DNA of 63,275 nucleotides, counting the filler, from Collodictyon triciliatum (taxonomy: Eukaryota): the NCBI GenBank assembly GCA_043381765.1. It is 5 parts of 5 records of this genome, joined end to end, with 100 filler letters (N's around TTAATTAATTAA, not from the genome) between each part and the next. Parts side by side here need not be neighbours in the genome. Positions count along the whole stretch, not along the records: positions 12,118 to 43,293 come from JBHJMP010000695.1; 4 more parts are not named here. One strand, given 5' to 3'. A model generated the notes under the pieces. It ran no database searches. It saw only the letters and a program-made list of their open reading frames with translations, and was not told the DNA's origin. This document shows positions 34,794 through 46,500 of the stretch, one piece after another (the stretch's first letter is position 1; every line of letters starts with the position of its first letter). The translations under genes were made by a program, and so were the position numbers.

Positions 34794-35174
34794 TTAGCAA
34801 GGAGGAGGCTTGTGTATTTTGGATTTCGCAAAGTTGATTCTTTTCTCAATATCTTTGGTTTTCTGGTCTTTTTCGCCGTAGCATGCGGAAAATGCATTTT
34901 TTGTTTTTAAAAATGAATCCAAAGCCTCCTGATATTTTCCAAGACGATAGTAGATATTTCCGACCTTATAAAATGCATCTCCTGTATGTACATGGAGATC
35001 TCCAAACAGCTTCAAATAAATCAGTAACGATTTTTGATAATGTTCTAACGCACCCTTGTTTCTATTCAACAAAGTAAAATCCAAAAAAAAAAAAGTAAAC
35101 AAAGTATAAATGAAATCATTCATTATTTCAATATGAACATACGATTGCAACTCTTTTATCCTTCCTGTTGTTTC

Positions 35175-35241
<67 letters not shown>

Positions 35242-35350
35242 TTTTTTTTTNNNNNNNNNNNNNNNNNNNNNNNNNNNNNNNNNNNNNNNNNNNNNNNNNN
35301 NNNNNNNNNNNNNNNNNNNNNNNNNNNNNNNNNNNNNNNNNNNNNNNNNN

Positions 35351-35381
<31 letters not shown>

Positions 35382-38300
35382 CATCTATCTGAATGACTTT
35401 ATATACTTACCGTCCCATAGCCTTATACAAATCTCCGATACTTGTGTAAGAAGTTGCAACGTCCAGGTGATTGTCACCGCATAGTTGGAGCCTTATTTTG
35501 AGTGATTTTTCAAAATAATCCAGGCTTTTCTCATATCTATGATACGCATAAAGCAGAATATGTCATTGAATACTTATGAATCTATTAGTGATTTAAATTT
35601 AAAATAATGGCAAAAATCAATAGAGAAATAGTTAAGACCTCCCACTCTTCAGATGTAAGCCAGCTATGTTATTATATGAGATTATGACATCATTATTCAA
35701 CTCCCCTAGTATCTCAAGGCGAATTTGAAGTGCTTTAATATAGAAATCCAATGTCTCTTCATTTCTAATTCAAAAAAAAAAAAAAAAAACAGAAGGTTAT
35801 GCGTGCTGTGAGTTTAGATAAGCGATGTAATGTTATTGCTACAGTATGCACCAATCTAGATAGATGTAATATATACCTTCCCATCACCTTATACACATCG
35901 CCAATATTGTTATATGAAGTGGCAACATCCAAGTGGATATCACCGCATAATTTGAGCCTTATTTGAAGCGATTTTTCATAATAGTCCAGTGCTTTTTCGT
36001 GTCTATTTAATAAAGATTAAAAAAATTAAAAATGGAAAGGTAGTGACAAATATTTTGGTACATGTTCTTTTCCTTTTTCTTTTTCTTTTTTTTTAAAAAA
36101 AGCATATCCTATCATATATACTTTCCAATTATCTTGAAAATATTCCCGATGTTGTTGAATGATGAAGCAACGTCTAAGTGCATTTCTCCAAACACTTTCA
36201 ATCGAATAGCAAGGGCTTTTTCATAATATTCTAATGTAGTTTCATATCTTTGCGCATATGTAATAATTAATTAAATTTAAACAGTGATACTAAATGGCTG
36301 AATTTTTTTTTTTTTTTTTTTACGAATATGATTTCAAAATGTTTGACAAATCCGAAAACGATAAAATCACAGAAAGACGTCTTACCTTCCAAGATTCTTG
36401 TAAACTAGCCCTATGTTATTATATGAGGTTGCAATACTAGGATGCTCTTCGCTGAAAACATGCAGATATATCCCCATTGATTTTTGATAAAATTCCAATG
36501 CTTTTTCGTGTCTATTTTATTTAAAAATGAATAAGACTAGACTTTGCCAGCCATGATAATTTTGATGGTTTGTATATAATCCAAATTGTTATTACTCTCC
36601 AAGATTTTTGTAAACGCTCCCTATGTTATTGTATGATGTTGCAACATCTGGGTGAATCTCTCCAAATATCTTTAAAGTGATATCCAAGTCTTTCCGATAA
36701 TATTCGAGAGCTTTTTCCATCCTTTGCAAGAATTTAATTAACATGGTTTAAGGCGTGTAACCTTTTTGTTTTTGTTTTTGTTTTTGTTTTATATGTTTGG
36801 TTGCTGTTTTCTTTGAAAAAAGGAAGCTATATATAAAACATACTGCCCAAAATTCTTGTAGAACAAACCGATGCTGTTATATGAAGTCGCTACATCTGGG
36901 TGTAATTCACCAAATACTTTCAACCGAATTTCCAGAGATTTTTGGTAGTATTCAAGAGCCTTGTCATATCTACATGAAGAAATCGAGAGAAAGAATCAAT
37001 GCGTGGAGTCTGCCTTGTTTAACTTTTTCCATCAAAAGAATAATTACCATGCTCCCATCTAAAGAGAATAGGTGCTATCGAATGAAATGGCATATATTGA
37101 TAAAGTAAGAAACATAAAATAATGTACTTTTTTAGGTTTTTATAAAACCCGCCGATGTTGTTGTAAGATGCAGCAACATCAGGATGAACCTCTCCAAAAA
37201 GATTAAGTCTTATTTGAAGAGATTTCTCGTAGTATTCCAGAGCTCTTTCGTGCCTGTAAATTACATTTTTTGCAATTATGAAGCAGACACTTTGATTAAA
37301 CATAAAATAACCTCTCTATCTATCCTTTTTAAAAACCTTTTAAGTTTGGTATGCACAAGTCCTATATTATTATAAGAGGCTGCAATGTCAGGATGCATTT
37401 GGCTGTGGACTACAGAGTATATTTCGAGAGACTTTTGGTAGTTTTCCAGTGCTTGCTCATGTCTAATGNNNNNNNNNNNNNNNNNNNNNNNNNNNNNNNN
37501 NNNNNNNNNNNNNNNNNNNNNNNNNNNNNNNNNNNNNNNNNNNNNNNNNNNNNNNNNNNNNNNNNNNNNNNNNNNNNNNNNNNAAAAAAACGAACCTAAA
37601 TCAGGACACATGAACGAAGCAAGACATAATATCTATATTTGCAATATCGGTGTAGTCGATGTGCTCTACTTTTTACCTTCCAAGGTTTCTATATACATTC
37701 CCAATAAATTGTAGATTTTTTGCCTTAGAACCTAGATGGTGTAACCTTTAGACCAAACCAAATATATAAAAACATATGCAGTAATCAGACAGAATGTAGT
37801 TGAATTAAATAAAGTAGATAGAGACAATCAGTCATTTTGTAAATATGAGAGACCTTCGTCTGCGTGATATTTGATTTTGTGTTCGAGAATTGGAATCAAA
37901 TATTCATTTTCATGAATATCTTGAAAGTAGGTCACAAGTTCATAGCCAATCGGTTCAAGTTTCTATGTAACACATGCATCCGTATGATTTGTTGGAAATA
38001 TGTAAATTAAATTAAATTTAAGTTGAAAGAGTGAAGAAAAAATCCATGAAAAAAAAATCTAAACCTTTGCCATTTCTTGATAAGCTACTTTGTGGTCATA
38101 TCCATTTTTATTCAGCTCTCTCCAACACTGAAAAAATTCAAATCGATAACTACCTCCTAACATAATATGGGCAACCTATGAAACATGCTATGGCTCATTA
38201 GTAAAATAGCTCAATCAATAAGAGTATCAATTGTAGTTCTACATAGTCTTATTCTGATATCAAATTTTAATCCTAACCTTTTCATGACCCAAATATGAAG

Positions 38301-40293
38301 CTAGTTTATCATATTGCTTCGAGGAAAGTAGAGCAAAACATATTTCGGCTATCTCACTTTGGTCGCTGGTAACAGTGCCATATTCTTCCAGTAACCACAA
38401 CCCATACTCCATGATTTCTTGTAGCTTGTACTCAGTATCTTTGAAATAACGTTGCTCGATCGATTGAGTGAGCAACTGATGAAAGAATGCATACCTGAGT
38501 TGAGGTATATGTAGATTAATTTCGCTTCAATAAATGTTAAGCGTTGACATCCTTGCTGTCTCCAACATCGATAATGTACGAATTAGTTTAAATGGGACGA
38601 TATTCGAGAAAAATGAATATTACCTTCCGTTTCTCAAAAAAAGTGAATCGAGAAGGACAAATAAAAGCGTTTTCCTACAGTTATTCATTTAGTGAATGAT
38701 TAGGAAGAGATGATAAAGTAATGTGAGATGATGCTTGAGTCACAAGGGTATACCATGTGGCGTGATTGAAAGGTTGGTTTTCTTTCTCTACTCGAAATTC
38801 TATATATTTGTCTAGTTCATTTTCATTCAGTCCTATCCTTGAGACGAACAAGACGCTAATTGATAACCTGACTAGTTGAGAGCCTGATTGGGCAGTAATT
38901 CGTTTAATGTCAATGTCATAAATAAAGCAGAATAAATAAAGCTCATCAAAGTTGAGGGGTTTATGCTACAGAATAGCACCTTCTAGATATTAGACAAGAC
39001 TGGTAATATATACTTTAAACCGTATTATTACACGGGTAATGAAAGACAGAAATATTAATAGAGTATTTTTGTACTGTATTTGCGTTCCCAGCGGTCCATG
39101 ACGAGATTGAAGAGGTCGACAACTCCTTTAGTTGACAATAGCGTCTTCAATTCCACTTCGATTTTTTCATAAATACCAAACACTCTCAGCTCATCTAATA
39201 TAATTCGCAAGTACAAGGGATGACCTGCATGTGCACATAGCGTCAGTATGTATACCATCATTCATTGTGAGGATAGGGATTTTATGAGTAAAGGTTTTAA
39301 TGAAGATAATTATAGTCCAACCTGTGTCTTGGCGGTCATTCAGAATCATTTGCATTTGATTTTCGTGGAGAGTTTTATTGTATCTGGAGAAAAATGATTT
39401 TGTTGCTTGAACGATTCCATCATCATCAAGCTTGGAGACTGGGACGATGTCGAGTTTGTATGACTCTGCAGCCTGTACAAATAGGAGGTATTAATTACAG
39501 AAACAATTTTCTTTAACAAAAGGAGCACATTAGCTGTTATTTGACAACATAACATGTGACAAGGAGAGTAGGTTTTATGATTAATGATAATGATAATGAT
39601 AATGATAATGATAATGATAATGATAATGATAATGATAATGATAATGATAATGATAATGATAATGATAATAGTTAAAGATATAGTTATAGTTATAGTTATA
39701 GTTGATGTTATAGTAGAAGTTGCAGTTTTAGTTATAAAAAGAAAATGAAAAGAAAATGTAAAAGCAAAAAGTTATTCGAACAACAAAGAGAAAAATTAAA
39801 CAACATAAGTAAAGTGCCTTGTATGATTCATGACGATCAATTGTGGATACGACGATGGACATATTTTTCGGCGTTCTTCTCGGCAACCATTCAAGGCGAT
39901 GTACGTGAGGGTACTGTTGAGAATTAACAAATTGGTTGATGGCGTCAACAACAAGAAGAACCCGCTTGAACCTAGTTTCCAATTCGTTTTAAAACTTGGT
40001 GAAGCACTTTAGATAAAAGAATCATGCTTCGGGTAAATATAATAGAAAATTTCATTTACAGACAACTAATTCAATAAAAAGCCGCCAAACCTGGATACAG
40101 ATGCTAATCGAAGGATGTAATCGAGCCCTTTCTTGATTGCTTCCTTTCCTAATTTTGGGTGGAAAAGCTTACGTACTGTATTTACAAGGTATATCATGAA
40201 TAGCTTTTATTTGGATAACACAGTTATTACTCACACAAAACAGAAAAGAAATGGCGTTCAAATGCTCCTTTGTTTAATTTCATTTTAGAAATG

Positions 40294-40390
<97 letters not shown>

Positions 40391-42839
40391 GTTGTTGTTG
40401 TTGTTTTAAAAAAAGAAACATATAAATCTTACCGTTCTCAGAGACTGGGTCGAAAAGAATTAACTCATTTTCAAAGAATATACGTAACACTCGTTCGACC
40501 ATGCTGTATAGGATTATAAAAATTAAATTTAATACAGACAGTTGATAAAGATGTGACTTAACCTTAGAATTCGCATTTGCTTTCATATTTCAATTGGAAG
40601 ATTGTTTACTTTTCAACATAATTGCTTAGATTTGAACACCCAACAAAATGGTATATGATAATCAAGCTTGAGTCTCTGTCATCATTCAAGTCACGCACAA
40701 GACCGCTCATTATAGTCGACTTTCCTATTCCCGACTCCGCACCAAGCACGGTGATGTATGAACCATCCGTGTCTATCTGCATCCTTAGCTTTTCTTTTAG
40801 CATGTGCAGGATCTTTTCTCTACCTTCCAGACAGATTAAGCGATGTCTCATGAATTGGTCATGCGCATGATCGTCGGAGTGAGCCTTTCATAATAAATTT
40901 ATAATTTAACTGTGCTTTAGATTAATAAAGTATGCTCCTAGCCTGTCTCTCTGACATAAAAAAATCCTTCCATGCTCTATTTTTTCTCAGATTTTTTCTC
41001 ATATCTTTACATATATTCAGATTAATAAAGAAAAAGAAACCTCATTTTTGGGAAAATCTTCATCTATTGATTTAATGAGGACTTCCGTCACCATTTCGAT
41101 AAGTTCTTTTGGCGTTTTGTAAGGATATATATGGAATTTTTCAGCAATCTTCCGCTTCAAACCGTCCTGCTTTAGTTTCTGGAAAGTATAGTTAAGGGGT
41201 GTCCAACTTCAGAGAGCTTCTAGTGGGAAAACAATCAAACTGTAAACTCACATCATTTTCGCTAACAGACCGATAAAGTGCACGCTCCTCATCACTTTCA
41301 GCTACGCACGAAACAGCATATTCCTCATCTCTGGCATAGAAAAAAGCCCTTCGCGCGACAGGTTGGTCTCTCAATGTAGCGTGAACGATCTGTTACATAT
41401 GATTTTTATCAGGATGATAATTTCTGTTTTTTTTTTCAGGTAGGTACGAATGTAGTCCGATTGAGATAAACCTCAGTGGAATTTCACAGTAGCATCTGAG
41501 ATACGTTTAACGTGATTGGTGTAGAATGTATAGTATGGATTCTAATAGAAAAAAAAAACTATATCTCAAAAACCTCATAATCAGTGACGCTAAGACCGCG
41601 TATGTGCTTGAGATAGGGAAACCTCATATCTGTCGTTGGATGCCACTCAGATTCAATCTCGTGGTTTGGTGACCAACCATATCGTGAACCGAGTGTGCAA
41701 AGAAAGTAGGGACATTCATCTATCGCCTCTAAACAACTGGAAACAATCTATGCTCATATTGTTTAACTAATCAGTTTTAGCGATTTATAGATCAAGAAGG
41801 GCTGGGAAAAAAACACGGGAAATAAATCAGTATACTTTTATACATGTAGGAGTTATTTTAAAGCAATAATCTACCAAAATTTTAGAAGTTCGCTCAATAC
41901 ATTATTAGGTACTTACAAGTCCATTTTCTGAAATTTCACTTGTAAGTCCCCACCGAAGATCGACAAATACCAGAACAAGCCCTTTCTTACTTGCATGATC
42001 TTTCAGTCTGCATAAAGAATATATATATATATGAATGGATGGCAGTGTCCGAGAATTTATTTCTACATTGTTATATTTTCATGCAGATAATTTCTGGTTA
42101 TATTTGTCTTATCAATATGTACATATGATAATACTTCAAATATGTTTCGTATTTCTTACTTTTTCTCCGCATTTTTAAAGAACTCATCCCTCTCTCTTTG
42201 CATATCCCTGAACGTAGACGACATGAAGACTCTCAAAAATCGTCCTTCCAGAACAGAAATCCATCGAGCCATTCCGTCCCCATAAGTCGAATCACAAACC
42301 AAGGGCGATACAGAATCTGCATGTGGCGCCCTTGGTAATATCATGGATTTCTCTTGATTCCCTTCGTCATGGCCTCCACTTTGCGTCCTGGTTACTTCTT
42401 CAGAAAAGACTGTATTTGGTGCAGTCATATGGAATACATGTTCAGGCTGATGGAGAACAGCAAGTGTTTGAGCGTCATCATCTTTTTCTGCAGTCCATTT
42501 TAGCGATGGATTTTCTACGTTTGCCTTTGGGGTATCCGGTTCGATATCCCCTTTGATTTTTGAAATGCGAGATTGCATCAACCCTCTTTGATATGAGACA
42601 CATGAGGCTGCGCATCCCCCGCCAATAAGAGAGATTGATACACGTGCTATGCCTCGTTCATCGATAGACAAAGTGAGCTGTTCTGCTCGACTCAATGCCA
42701 GGCTTGTCAATGAATGTAGATTCATTTCCGCTGGAAACACCACCCCATGTAGATACATGGGCTCTGAACGGCTGTTTTCTCGAAATATTGCTTTGTTATT
42801 GTGGACCCATAGGATCCCACTTTTTGTCCTCAGCGACAT
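34794..42839 (-). CDS. DUF4062-NACHT(STAND)-TPR protein, NPHP3/TEP1-like architecture
   Basis: LRVFMSSTFRDMQRERD and VDLRWG (DUF4062-like), GAESGIGKS (Walker A), HFVG, LLVVDAINQ (Walker B), WLP, GHPLYLRIILDELRVFG, FFHQ, then more than 10 42-aa TPR repeats (HPDVATSYNNIG). A short upstream exon near 43039-43151 is possible. Confidence 0.9.
35411..37462 (-). repeat. Array of nine 126-nt exons, each encoding one 42-aa TPR repeat
   Basis: Exons 37337-37462, 37128-37253, 36845-36970, 36596-36721, 36386-36511, 36122-36247, 35877-36002, 35639-35764 and 35411-35536 are each bounded by AG and GT with phase-2 introns. Confidence 0.92.
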
Positions 42840-43293
42840 CGTGGGATTGTTGGAATGGAAGTTCACTTTGGAATAGAAAAGGAAAAGAGAGGAAAAGACC
42901 ATAATATTTTAATATATATAAGAGAGAGAGCAATAACCACGCGAATACTTTGGAATGCCCAGCGCCAGGCATAGGGATTGTTTGTGAACACACAATCCCG
43001 TGCAACTTGAAGGAATACATATGGTGCTGAATCACTTACTGTCTTCCCTCCCGGTTTCCTGGCTCTGCTCTTCTGCGGCTGGCTTTGTCTTTGTGCCATA
43101 CCCAAAAGACCCGCAGAATCTCTCCAGTATACCCAGGCCAGTGCTGCGCATTCAGCCTCGCGCCAAAGGGCAAGAGAAACGATTCGGGGTGCCGAGGCTG
43201 TCTTCTGCGCGCTGGTCTTGGTCTATCTGGTTGCTTCAGCAATAGGCAGCGTGATTTTTTTTTTTTTTTTTTTTTATTCTTCCTTTCAATTTT

Positions 43294-43393
43294 NNNNNNN
43301 NNNNNNNNNNNNNNNNNNNNNNNNNNNNNNNNNNNNNTTAATTAATTAANNNNNNNNNNNNNNNNNNNNNNNNNNNNNNNNNNNNNNNNNNNN
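43294..43393. other. Artificial scaffold linker
   Basis: TTAATTAATTAA at 43338-43349 within Ns. Confidence 0.95.
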
Positions 43394-43593: not shown

Positions 43594-46500
43594 ATGGCTC
43601 AGGTGAATGACTATGTCTTTAATGAAGTTATTGGAAAGGGTTCCTTCGGATGTGTCCACAAAGTGCGTTCAAAGAGTGAGCCTTTGTTTTACTTATCACT
43701 CAAAGTATACTTCCTCCGTTTCATTTTTCTATCACCTAATATAATCCGTGGAAACTTGAGTATTTCATTAATGATGGAAATGATAGTAATGATAATATTA
43801 TTATTAAATATGTAGGTGATAACCAAGAGTATGTTATCAAAGAAGTTGACTTTACAGAGCTTACTCAGGAGCAACAAACAGCAACAACAAACGAGGTACA
43901 TTCTCTTTTGAATTGTATCACTTAATCTTCTCCATGATTCATTTTCACTTATTATTTATTTTAACAATTTATTTAGATCCAATTGCTTTCGTCTCTTGAC
44001 AGTCCCTATATTGTGAAACACGTTAACTCGTTTCTATCCGGTGGGAGTATGTATATCGTAATGGAATACTGCAGACACGGAACACTAGCAGATTACATAA
44101 AGGTACACGCGCTCCAGTTCAATATGATTATTATTCTTTAGCTAGAAGCAAAGCCGGCCACTGTTTGGACATTTTTTATTTTATTTTTTTACTAATAAGT
44201 GAAATACAATATCAAACAGAGCCAGAAGGGAAGATCTCTACCCGAGCCTGTTATATGGAAGGCGTTTCTTCAGGTTCTTCTCGGTTTACAAGGTAACATT
44301 TCATATTCTGGTATACTCTTACTTGTTTTTTCTTTTTTCGATATGAGCTAAATGACATGCATTAAGAAGTATAATAGCATCATTTTCATATGCATTATTG
44401 TATACATCGAATAGAAATCCACTCTAGGAACATCATACACAGAGACATAAAGACGTTGAATATCCTGCTTGATGATGACAACAATGCCAAGATTGCTGAC
44501 TTTGGTATTGCGAAGCGACTCGGAGGGAATTCTGAATATGCACAAACATTTGTTGGAACCCCATTTTATTTGAGTCCTGAACTTATTGATGGACAGCCAT
44601 ACAATGGTATGCAAGCTCAATATTATTTATTCTCTGCCATATCATATTGTAAACAGTTTAATCAAAATAATTCACGTTTGAAAGACTTTGAAATGCTTGC
44701 TCGTTTTTGTTTTTGTTTTGTTTTTGTTTTAGTTTTTGTTTTTGTTTTTGTTTTTGTTTTTGTTTTTGTTTTTGTTTTTGTTTTTGTTTTTGTTTTTGTT
44801 TTTGTTTTTGTTTTTGTTTTTGTTTTTGTTNNNNNNNNNNNNNNNNNNNNNNNNNNNNNNNNNNNNNNNNNNNNNNNNNNNNNNNNNNNNNNNNNNNNNN
44901 NNNNNNNNNNNNNNNNNNNNNNNNNNNNNNTGTTTTTGTTTTTGTTTTTGTTTTTGTTTTTGTTTTTGTTTTTGTTTTTGTTTTTGTTTTTGTTTTTGTT
45001 TTTGTTTTTGTTTTTGTTTTTGTTTTTACTATAAAACCCTTAAACCTCACAGAAAAAGCAGACATATGGGCGCTCGGGTGCTTACTTTACGAGCTGTGTA
45101 CCCAATGTCCACCATTTGAAGCATCAAATCAAGGGGCATTGATAATGAAAATATTGAAAGGAGAATACGCACCAATAAGGTTTCGTGAATGCATCACAAA
45201 ATACATTTAAATAAACTAAACATCATCATAGCAATAATTCATATGGTCGCTTTTCTATAAAAACTTCATGGATTCCCTCCAATTAACTATTCATATTATT
45301 GTATTATTAGCCGTAAATATTCCCACGATCTGTTCGAAACCATCTCTTCGTGTCTTACAAAAGAAGTGCGACTTCGGCCATCCGTTTCTGACTTAATTCA
45401 CCGACCACCCATTTATAACAAAGTAGACGAAAAGCTTCAATGCCTATGTTACATACTTTTCGAATAATTCATATGATTCAAGACTTCATACCTTCACGCT
45501 AAACACTGCGACACGATTATAGATTCAGGAGCTAGGCCTTAAATTACCGCCATCAGAATCGCACGACCCAAAAGCCATCCCAAGACGACGGCGCAGAACA
45601 CCAAGCAATTCATCGTCCATGTCCCCAGACATATCGCATGGGTATTGACAAATCATATCTCTTAAAACTTCATCATAACATTGGGCGTTGATGAACAATA
45701 AATGATTTTCCTTTTTCTTCTTTTTCTTCTTTTTCTTCTTTTTCTTCTTTTTCTTCTTTTTCTTCCTTTTCTTCCTTTTCTTCCTTTTCTTCCTTTTCTT
45801 CCTTTTCTTCCTTTTCTTCCTTTTCTTCCTTTTCTTTTCCCTGTAAATAAAAACAATGGAAGCATGAATTTTGACTGAAAAAAAAAAACGTGTTCAGGCA
45901 TCCTCCACAGCATGGGTTTGTGGGAAACTCGACCCCTGTCATAGGCCACTTGCGCGCATCTTTTGACAGAGAGTTGAGAACAAATGACCACACACTTCCT
46001 CCGATGTCGTCTGCCAGCATCCCGCCCCTCCCTCTCCGCCAAGCTAATGCTCACCCACTCACACACGATTTGCCCCAGGTATTGGATACCCCAAAAAATA
46101 TGTCCATATTTTATCAAATACATAATGTCCATTACCTGGGACATGCTTGTAAAATATAATAACAGATTCAAAGATTTTTGTTGCTTTACATCGACTTATA
46201 TGACTCTTTGACGAAGACAAATATTGAAAGTTGACAAAAAAGAATAACGAAGAAAAAGACCATATTCAGTGGGTCTATTTATGCCAATTTTTAACTTTTT
46301 TTTTTTTTATTGTATTATTCATATTAAAGTACCACTTCAGCACACATCAACACGGACCACCACCTTTGTATCCAGGCAGCCAAGGTCACGCTCACACAGG
46401 CGCATCTGCTTCACCAAACATGATTCGAACGTCTCTATCAGGAGACATCGCCGAAATGCGCTCATCACTTGAATTCCGTCCTTCGTCGCATCGACCGCCT

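Follow-up and report, generated by a model that had tools for sequence, protein, structure and literature searches.

A gene on the minus strand of a 63,275 nt stretch of DNA from the protist Collodictyon triciliatum (assembly GCA_043381765.1) encodes, judging by its domain matches, an NPHP3-like NIR-NACHT-TPR STAND protein in which the acylation motif found at the N-terminus of some relatives lies inside the chain. The motif, G75-C-A-A-S-C-V-S, is probably homologous to the family's N-terminal dual-acylation signal, and it stands directly behind an orphan N-terminal extension that is transcribed, spliced from a 5′ exon and ends in L-I-G-G. The reading we prefer, to which we give about an even chance, is that the motif stays buried, left over from the loss of a start codon or from an N-terminal extension, and that this copy of the protein has no anchor. 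The initial annotation of this DNA had described the extension as a ubiquitin-sized, divergent ubiquitin-like (UBL) leader masking the motif. The masked motif is upheld, in that it matches the MGC starts of relatives and the NPHP3 N-terminus and has no free N-terminus of its own; the extension itself is not demonstrably ubiquitin-like.

The window (the whole stretch analysed, filler included) consists of 5 parts of 5 records joined end to end, with 100 filler letters between each part and the next, and parts that are adjacent here need not be neighbours in the genome; positions 12,118 to 43,293 are from JBHJMP010000695.1. Its features are eukaryotic, with short exons, introns of about 160–175 nt, a GC content of about 35–40% and many N gaps. 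RNA support comes from one metatranscriptome run (X1), with depth in 4 of 30 bins.

Translation of the minus strand from the ATG at 42839 gave, as annotated, 74 residues to ...RVSISLIGG (last Gly codon 42620-42618), continuing directly into GCAASCVSYQ. The two elements are:

42618..42839, minus strand: 74-codon leader from ATG 42839, ending L71-I72-G73-G74 (42629-42618); orphan sequence
42594..42617, minus strand: G75-C-A-A-S-C-V-S, probable internal copy of the family's N-terminal myristoyl-Gly/palmitoyl-Cys motif

The acylation motif and its chance level

The PROSITE-type N-myristoylation pattern is G-{EDRKHPFYW}-x-x-[STAGCN]-{P}. It is fitted both by GCAASC and by the MGCGAS start of a paralog in the window (described below), and is very common, occurring 518 times in the 44,918 residues used as background (11.5 per 1000), two of these directly after GG. 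The narrower pattern GCxx[ST] occurs 13 times in the same background (0.29 per 1000, or about 0.06 expected in 202 residues) and never after GG. The 1,956 residues that precede DUF4062 in 15 eukaryote-type relatives contain it three times, in each case directly after a Met. A published list of peptides (PMC8246649) includes the myristoylated N-terminus of NPHP3, GTASSLVS..., and that of LCK, GCGCSS.... GCAASCVS is identical to the NPHP3 sequence at 5/8 positions, a level that no G-anchored 8-mer of the background reaches (20 reach 4/8); in the 227-residue N-terminal exon a match of at least 5/8 occurs once, at G75. The motif lies about 130 amino acids (aa) ahead of FMSSTF, and the corresponding spacing in P0015, a relative from Diphylleia rotans, is 135 aa. 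All of these patterns were chosen with the data already seen, so the p-values are indicative only.

GCAAS could have nothing to do with the family motif and be small residues that happen to follow one another in a low-complexity linker. The abundance of the PROSITE-type pattern and the choice of patterns after the sequence had been seen are consistent with this, and the low expectation for GCxx[ST], the count of 0/44,918 background positions for the NPHP3 match and the restriction of GCxx[ST] to N-termini in the relatives' pre-DUF4062 regions argue against it; we regard such a coincidence as distinctly unlikely. Because GG followed by GCxx[ST] and the match of at least 5/8 to NPHP3 are both absent from the background, the motif is unlikely to be there by chance.

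G75 is not a free N-terminal Gly. The codon before it is GGG, the frame is open upstream, and no AG acceptor through which splicing could bring in a Met lies in the bases just upstream; the sequence thus rules out co-translational myristoylation. A Met spliced in from farther away was also considered, but the acceptors in question (catag/CA... and gcgcag/CC...) are paper possibilities without RNA support, and the candidate was rejected.

The 5′ exon, splicing and start codons

The sequence and the RNA together place the following elements at the 5′ end of the gene:

43040..43174, minus strand: 5′ exon (minimum extent), X1 RNA contig, 135 nt, 0 differences; in-frame AUG at 43151-43149
42866..43039, minus strand: intron 1, 174 nt, with GTAAGT as donor and a pyrimidine-rich acceptor ending ...CCAAAG; sequence prediction and RNA contig
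42160..42865, minus strand: exon 2, with leader, motif, linker of about 125 aa and DUF4062 start; GTAAGA donor at 42159; open frame 42156-42908

The upstream exon, its ATG at 43151, the donor at 43039 and the acceptor were predicted from the sequence before the RNA was compared; the exon has phase 1 and joins exon 2 in frame. The X1 contig (164 nt, depth 2.8, 0 differences) covers 43174-43040 and 42865-42837 and omits exactly 174 nt, a segment whose ends read CT..AC on the plus strand and hence GT..AG on the minus. The shorter side of the junction is 29 nt, two below the 31 nt rule of the alignment tool, and an exact RNA match at a junction predicted beforehand is hard to obtain by accident. 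The exon that had been suggested at about 43039-43151 is thus supported by RNA, and it lies upstream of the motif. X1 leaves 42600-42836 and the exons below 42837 uncovered and is uninformative for those parts. An in-frame stop lies directly upstream of AUG 43151; the 5′ exon has a GC content of 0.56 and no frame-specific codon signal.

Three AUGs are present in the mRNA, at 43151 (in frame), 43099 (out of frame) and 42839 (in frame). Translation probably begins at AUG 43151, giving a leader of 120 aa rather than 74; a leader of 74 aa would be made only if ribosomes skip to AUG 42839. With the first AUG in use, LIGG ends at residue 120, and the 'ubiquitin-sized' length is therefore an accident of starting at an exon-internal ATG: the count of 74 aa from ATG 42839 was correct, and the size of the leader that had been drawn from it probably was not. 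Whichever AUG is used, translation does not start downstream of the motif.

AUG 43099 has G at -3 and +4 and opens a 20-codon out-of-frame upstream open reading frame (uORF; 43099-43040 joined to 42865-42863, minus strand). Exon 2 opens with the TGA that stops the uORF, 23 nt before AUG 42839, and the uORF could influence the choice of in-frame AUG. The 9-mer ATGCGCAGC, which opens the upstream exon ORF (43151-43143), recurs at 42615-42607 (minus strand), where it spans the codons of G75-C-A-A with a shift of one base from the frame; the chance expectation for a 9-mer in a window of this size is about 0.5 (an estimate). About 120 nt upstream of the RNA-supported exon are two runs of 44 N (43294-43337 and 43350-43393), read as assembly gaps; they fall in the short stretch between this gene and a divergent neighbour, so that the gene's true 5′ end and its promoter are incompletely represented.

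Relatives and a paralog in the window

Among 11 distinct Diphylleia rotans transcript proteins of the family, P0015 begins MGCGSSS, P0016 MGCASSVS and P0018 MGHVLCSC, and the other eight do not begin with MG. The starts of these members indicate that protist DUF4062-NACHT(-TPR) proteins repeatedly carry N-terminal acylation motifs, as human NPHP3 does. A further case is found in the window itself:

61424..61498, minus strand: putative first exon of the divergent paralog, MGCGASKK; donor GTTTGT, phase 0, 25 codons; ATG preceded by a stop 11 codons upstream

This ORF and its first residues were confirmed as annotated, and MGCGASKK has the appearance of a textbook myristoylation/palmitoylation start. 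Exon 1 (phase 0) can join an exon that begins at cag/AAT (about 61040-60860, phase 1), followed by a DUF4062-like exon (60335-60153, VRVVFCSSFRD); these links are a reading of exon phases without RNA, and an N gap (60485-60584) lies inside. The family membership of the paralog rests on tblastn matches (E 4e-6 and 3e-5), and each of its six exon pieces gave 0 Pfam families. The N-terminal MGC motif is present in P0015, P0016 and, by its putative first exon, the paralog, and none of the relatives fetched has a leader or an internal GG-GC junction.

A close relative, P0002 (127 aa, an exon-level ORF on a 559 nt contig), has an upstream ATG and 41 open codons ahead of an internal MGCPWT. From its sequence, P0002 suggests that a longest-ORF reading can make an apparent leader ahead of a probable true MGC start. 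The same may have happened here if the true sequence has ATG where the assembly has GGG, through an artefact of sequence or gene model or through strain polymorphism; the leader would then be an open 5′ untranslated region (UTR) and the protein would start MGCAAS. The draft assembly contains many N gaps, one of them just upstream at 43294-43393, the site lies within a run of five G, P0002 offers a precedent, and the first 40 leader codons and exon 1 carry no frame-specific codon signal. On the other side, two adjacent base errors would be required, a run of 97–120 stop-free codons has a chance probability of about 0.002–0.005 (estimated at about 0.053 stops per codon), and the in-frame AUG of exon 1 would also have to be there by chance. 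We give this explanation little probability.

The leader and the ubiquitin-like model

The leader was searched for at the level of sequence, profile and predicted fold. A phmmer search with the 227-aa exon against 1.84 billion representatives returned eight matches, of which six (P0001-P0005 and P0008) cover only residues 168–227, and no UBL-type match to the leader was among them. The remaining two, P0006 and P0007, were rejected as leader homologues, since near-identical repeats add up in their scores. In P0006 there are four NPCBM domains (library E 7.3e-7, summed over four near-identical repeats; 31.6 bits pairwise), and the repeat protein P0007 has only a short word in common with the leader. 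The likeness to the NPCBM domains of P0006 falls in 42839-42516 (minus strand; residues 21–108, 22% identity over 88 aa), spanning the GG/GC site; as a single-domain match it is not significant, and Pfam lists no NPCBM hit to the leader at E ≤ 10.

Other searches of the leader were likewise negative. Pfam hmmscan of the leader and of residues 1–200 found 0 families at E ≤ 10, and phmmer of the leader against PDB sequences found 0 matches at E ≤ 10. The best scores in the ESM Atlas, 0.81 and 0.83, are in its stated noise range, with low recognition values. In metagenome contigs, a pattern for aa 1–180 had 62 matches, 0 of them confirmed, and an exact 21 nt pattern across the motif had none. No second copy of the leader was found in the window at the protein level, and DNA-level self-comparison gave, among the matches listed, essentially only poly-A/T. 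The N-terminal regions of 49 fetched proteins showed no similarity to the leader. These results agree with the remark in the initial annotation that the leader has no obvious sequence identity to ubiquitin.

The predicted secondary structure of the leader has strands at residues 8–13, 16–21, 28–30, 54–59 and 65–70, and a helix at 41–50. Two AlphaFold2 (AF2) runs concur in leading the last β-strand (65–70) straight into LIGG, with the order ββ...α...ββ, and from G75 onwards the predicted local distance difference test (pLDDT) values are mostly below 40, with no secondary structure. Comparison of the leader models with known folds gave no β-grasp match, the models being of low confidence.

According to the UBL model, a divergent UBL pro-domain would be cut after L-I-G-G by a protease of deubiquitinase (DUB) or ULP type, G75 would be myristoylated and C76 palmitoylated, and membrane or ciliary targeting would depend on the protease. 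That L-x-G-G immediately precedes an acylation motif typical of the family, without a Met between them, is reminiscent of ubiquitin-fusion precursors, the strand order in both AF2 runs is compatible with the model, and the low pLDDT around G75 suggests that the site should be accessible. Set against this are the absence of any UBL family in Pfam at E ≤ 10 and of any PDB sequence match, the probable length of 120 aa rather than 74, and the absence of the leader from all fetched relatives. In the sequence tests the UBL claim fails, and the fold predictions, from weak models, lend it no support; we consider the UBL model very improbable.

Fate of the motif

If the motif is buried, as we prefer to think, G75-C-A-A-S-C-V-S would be the family's ordinary dual-acylation signal (myristoyl-Gly and palmitoyl-Cys), made internal. 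The frame continues upstream of the Gly, which is not preceded by a Met, and the anchor motif is thus masked in the primary product. Unexposed, it would leave the product of this paralog soluble, in contrast to the relatives that start with MGC, and the buried state would be a recent relic of start-codon loss or N-terminal extension. The orphan character of the leader, the absence of such a leader from the relatives fetched and the lack of a frame-specific codon signal in its first 40 codons and in exon 1 favour this reading.

Several observations weigh against a buried relic. A dead relic is expected to decay, and the motif is intact with L-x-G-G directly ahead; the chance of L-x-G-G at this exact spot is about 4e-4 (estimated post hoc from residue frequencies). 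GGG is two changes away from ATG, which fits a designed junction better than a simple loss of the start codon. Upstream of G75 no stop interrupts the frame for 97 codons, or for 120 via the splice, which argues that the extension is selected coding sequence and not former UTR. The frame margin of the leader is 0.061, compared with 0.17–0.55 in 16 of 17 true exon blocks, but its sliding windows overlap the range of true exons; the first 40 leader codons and exon 1 show no frame-specific codon bias, and codon-usage tests of whether the leader is coding are underpowered. The RNA consists of a single metatranscriptome contig (depth 2.8, with a short side of 29 nt), and 42600-42836, which includes the GGG codon, is uncovered.

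A cut after LIGG by any protease, the UBL/DUB version included, would expose G75, and is on the whole unlikely. Its fullest form is a protease-gated lipid anchor on an NLR-like NAD+ hydrolase (NADase), clipped after L-I-G-G, acylated at G75 and C76, and moving to the membrane or cilium only after the cut; this too we judge unlikely. No UBL fold is needed if another protease acts at or near G74/G75, like the caspase that cleaves BID or in the manner of the self-processing AvrPphB family. The motif is intact and nearer to the NPHP3 N-terminus than the motifs of some paralogs, the junction is predicted to lie at the border between a structured part and a disordered linker, and hidden acylation motifs exposed by processing have precedents in AvrPphB, ORF4 and NopT, as far as the text available of the source goes (PMC4951486). 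Opposed to these points, no protease domain was detected in the N-terminal 227 aa, no conservation points to selection on the junction, and the reading is known from sequence alone. Cleavage of this kind seems improbable to us. Self-cleavage of Hint/intein type at the G/C site was considered as well and was rejected, there being no Hint-family match in aa 1–227.

Domain architecture

The remainder of the gene, all on the minus strand, comprises:

42160..42233, minus strand: start of DUF4062 (NIR, TIR-like NADase), ...RVFMSSTFRDMQRERDEFF; Pfam and tblastn with P0008
about 42007-41917 and 41735-41571, minus strand: DUF4062 continuation exons
34800..41500, minus strand: remainder of the gene, many short exons with a P-loop NTPase and a TPR array; Pfam and tblastn

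The stop-to-stop open frame that contains exon 2 runs from 42908 to the GTAAGA donor at 42159 (250 codons), and the relatives P0003 and P0004 stop at the same ...AEKK boundary as exon 2. The first 20 profile positions of Pfam DUF4062 match at aa 203–222 (E 0.0053, below the cut-off), and a later exon piece, 41562-41747, matches the same family with E 1e-6 (29.3 bits, cut-off 24.7). Around the boundary of exon 2 and DUF4062, identity to relatives is 53–69%. The exon at 41735-41571 (minus strand) reads SVTDYE, which fits the S-V-T-x-x-E common to bacterial and Diphylleia relatives, and this stretch may include the catalytic Glu of the NADase.

A Walker A sequence, GAESGIGKST, is readable in the P-loop exon, and the NTPase region gave per-exon Pfam matches to NPHP3_N (E 0.0029) and AAA_16 (E 0.0052), both below the cut-off. 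Many TPR exons are present; TPR_12 (E 2.5e-8) and TPR_10 (E 2.2e-8) are above the cut-off, and TPR_NPHP3 is weak. P0008 is an 865-aa Diphylleia rotans transcript protein with precomputed Pfam families PF24883, PF13191 and PF13401. By tblastn it aligns near-collinearly with the window from 42269 to about 34900, with gaps, its residues 339–375 or thereabouts being unmatched. From the DUF4062, P-loop and TPR matches and the collinearity with P0008, the gene is taken to encode an NPHP3-like NIR-NACHT-TPR STAND protein, and the NPHP3-like NTPase-TPR layout attributed to it earlier is borne out. Homologous-protein searches for longer proteins gave 0 of 1,067 candidates at E ≤ 0.001 with the N-terminal exon and 0 of 44 confirmed with the P-loop exon, and no annotated model of the gene was found by these searches.

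In the portions available, two preprints of 2026 describe DUF4062 as a TIR-like NADase ('NIR'), and one of them places DUF4062 next to a NACHT ATPase in human NPHP3, NWD1, NWD2 and TEP1.

Neighbouring genes

A gene with protein-kinase motifs (IGKGSFG...) lies on the opposite strand at 43594-45034 (plus strand). Because the two genes are divergent and this one starts about 440 nt from AUG 43151, a bidirectional promoter region may serve both. A multi-exon P-type ATPase gene (DKTGTLT at 52518-52285) lies between the two STAND genes, at about 55130-47500 (minus strand); by this motif only, it looks like a phospholipid flippase.

Significance

NPHP3 localisation depends on its myristoylated N-terminus (PMC8246649), and it is only recently that NPHP3-type proteins have been tied to TIR-like NAD+ hydrolysis, according to the accessible parts of the 2026 preprints. 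Distant protist members of the family repeat the acylation motif, and in one copy an orphan extension with L-x-G-G at its end stands in front of it. Retention of this extension would make the gene an example of a paralog whose anchor is lost through lengthening at the N-terminus. Its removal would provide regulated post-translational membrane targeting of an NLR-like enzyme, and protease gating would make it an endogenous eukaryotic counterpart of the hidden acylation motif of AvrPphB type.

Comparison with known systems

Ubiquitin-fusion precursors and UBL pro-proteins (UBA52/RPS27A, Sde2) are cut after GG. The extension described here shares with them an L-x-G-G tail that follows a predicted β-strand and is joined directly to the next protein residue with no Met; it differs in having no UBL match by sequence or profile, nor by fold in low-confidence models, in its probable length of 120 aa and in its absence from every relative fetched. 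In BID and other proteins an internal Gly becomes a substrate of N-myristoyltransferase (NMT) only after caspase cleavage. G75 is likewise an internal Gly that would need proteolysis, but there is no caspase-type site here and the cleavage is hypothetical.

In architecture the protein resembles NPHP3, an N-myristoylated UNC119 cargo. Both proteins combine DUF4062, a NACHT-type NTPase and TPRs (for human NPHP3, as far as the consulted part of the source extends), and 5/8 positions of the motif are identical to Myr-GTASSLVS (PMC8246649). The Gly of NPHP3 is residue 2 and is modified co-translationally, whereas its counterpart in this gene is residue 75 or 121 and does not follow a Met. A palmitoylation-type site comes in addition from the Cys at +1, which the LCK peptide Myr-GCGCSS also has (PMC8246649). 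The type III effectors AvrPphB, ORF4 and NopT offer another parallel, in that a pro-segment hides a myristoylation and palmitoylation motif until cleavage (PMC4951486, from the part of the text available); here the cleavage is hypothetical. They are bacterial self-cutting papain-like proteases, in contrast to an endogenous eukaryotic STAND NTPase in which no protease domain was found.

The DUF4062/NIR STAND proteins of bacteria and eukaryotes, as described in the available portions of the literature, share with the present gene an effector-type DUF4062 placed N-terminal to a STAND NTPase with repeats. Outside eukprot, the FxSSTF motif was found in 22 relatives and lies within the first 25 residues in 17 of them and at positions 74–443 in the other five. 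The protist copies differ in having long and variable N-terminal regions, some of which start with acylation motifs.

A limited search by title and abstract found no paper devoted to a UBL-masked acylation motif, which is not proof that none has been published. The N-myristoylation of NPHP3, acylation motifs exposed by processing and UBL fusions cleaved after GG are each already known separately. What is new is that the acylation motif recurs in protist NIR-NACHT-TPR proteins, and that one copy has it buried behind an orphan, spliced extension ending in L-x-G-G.

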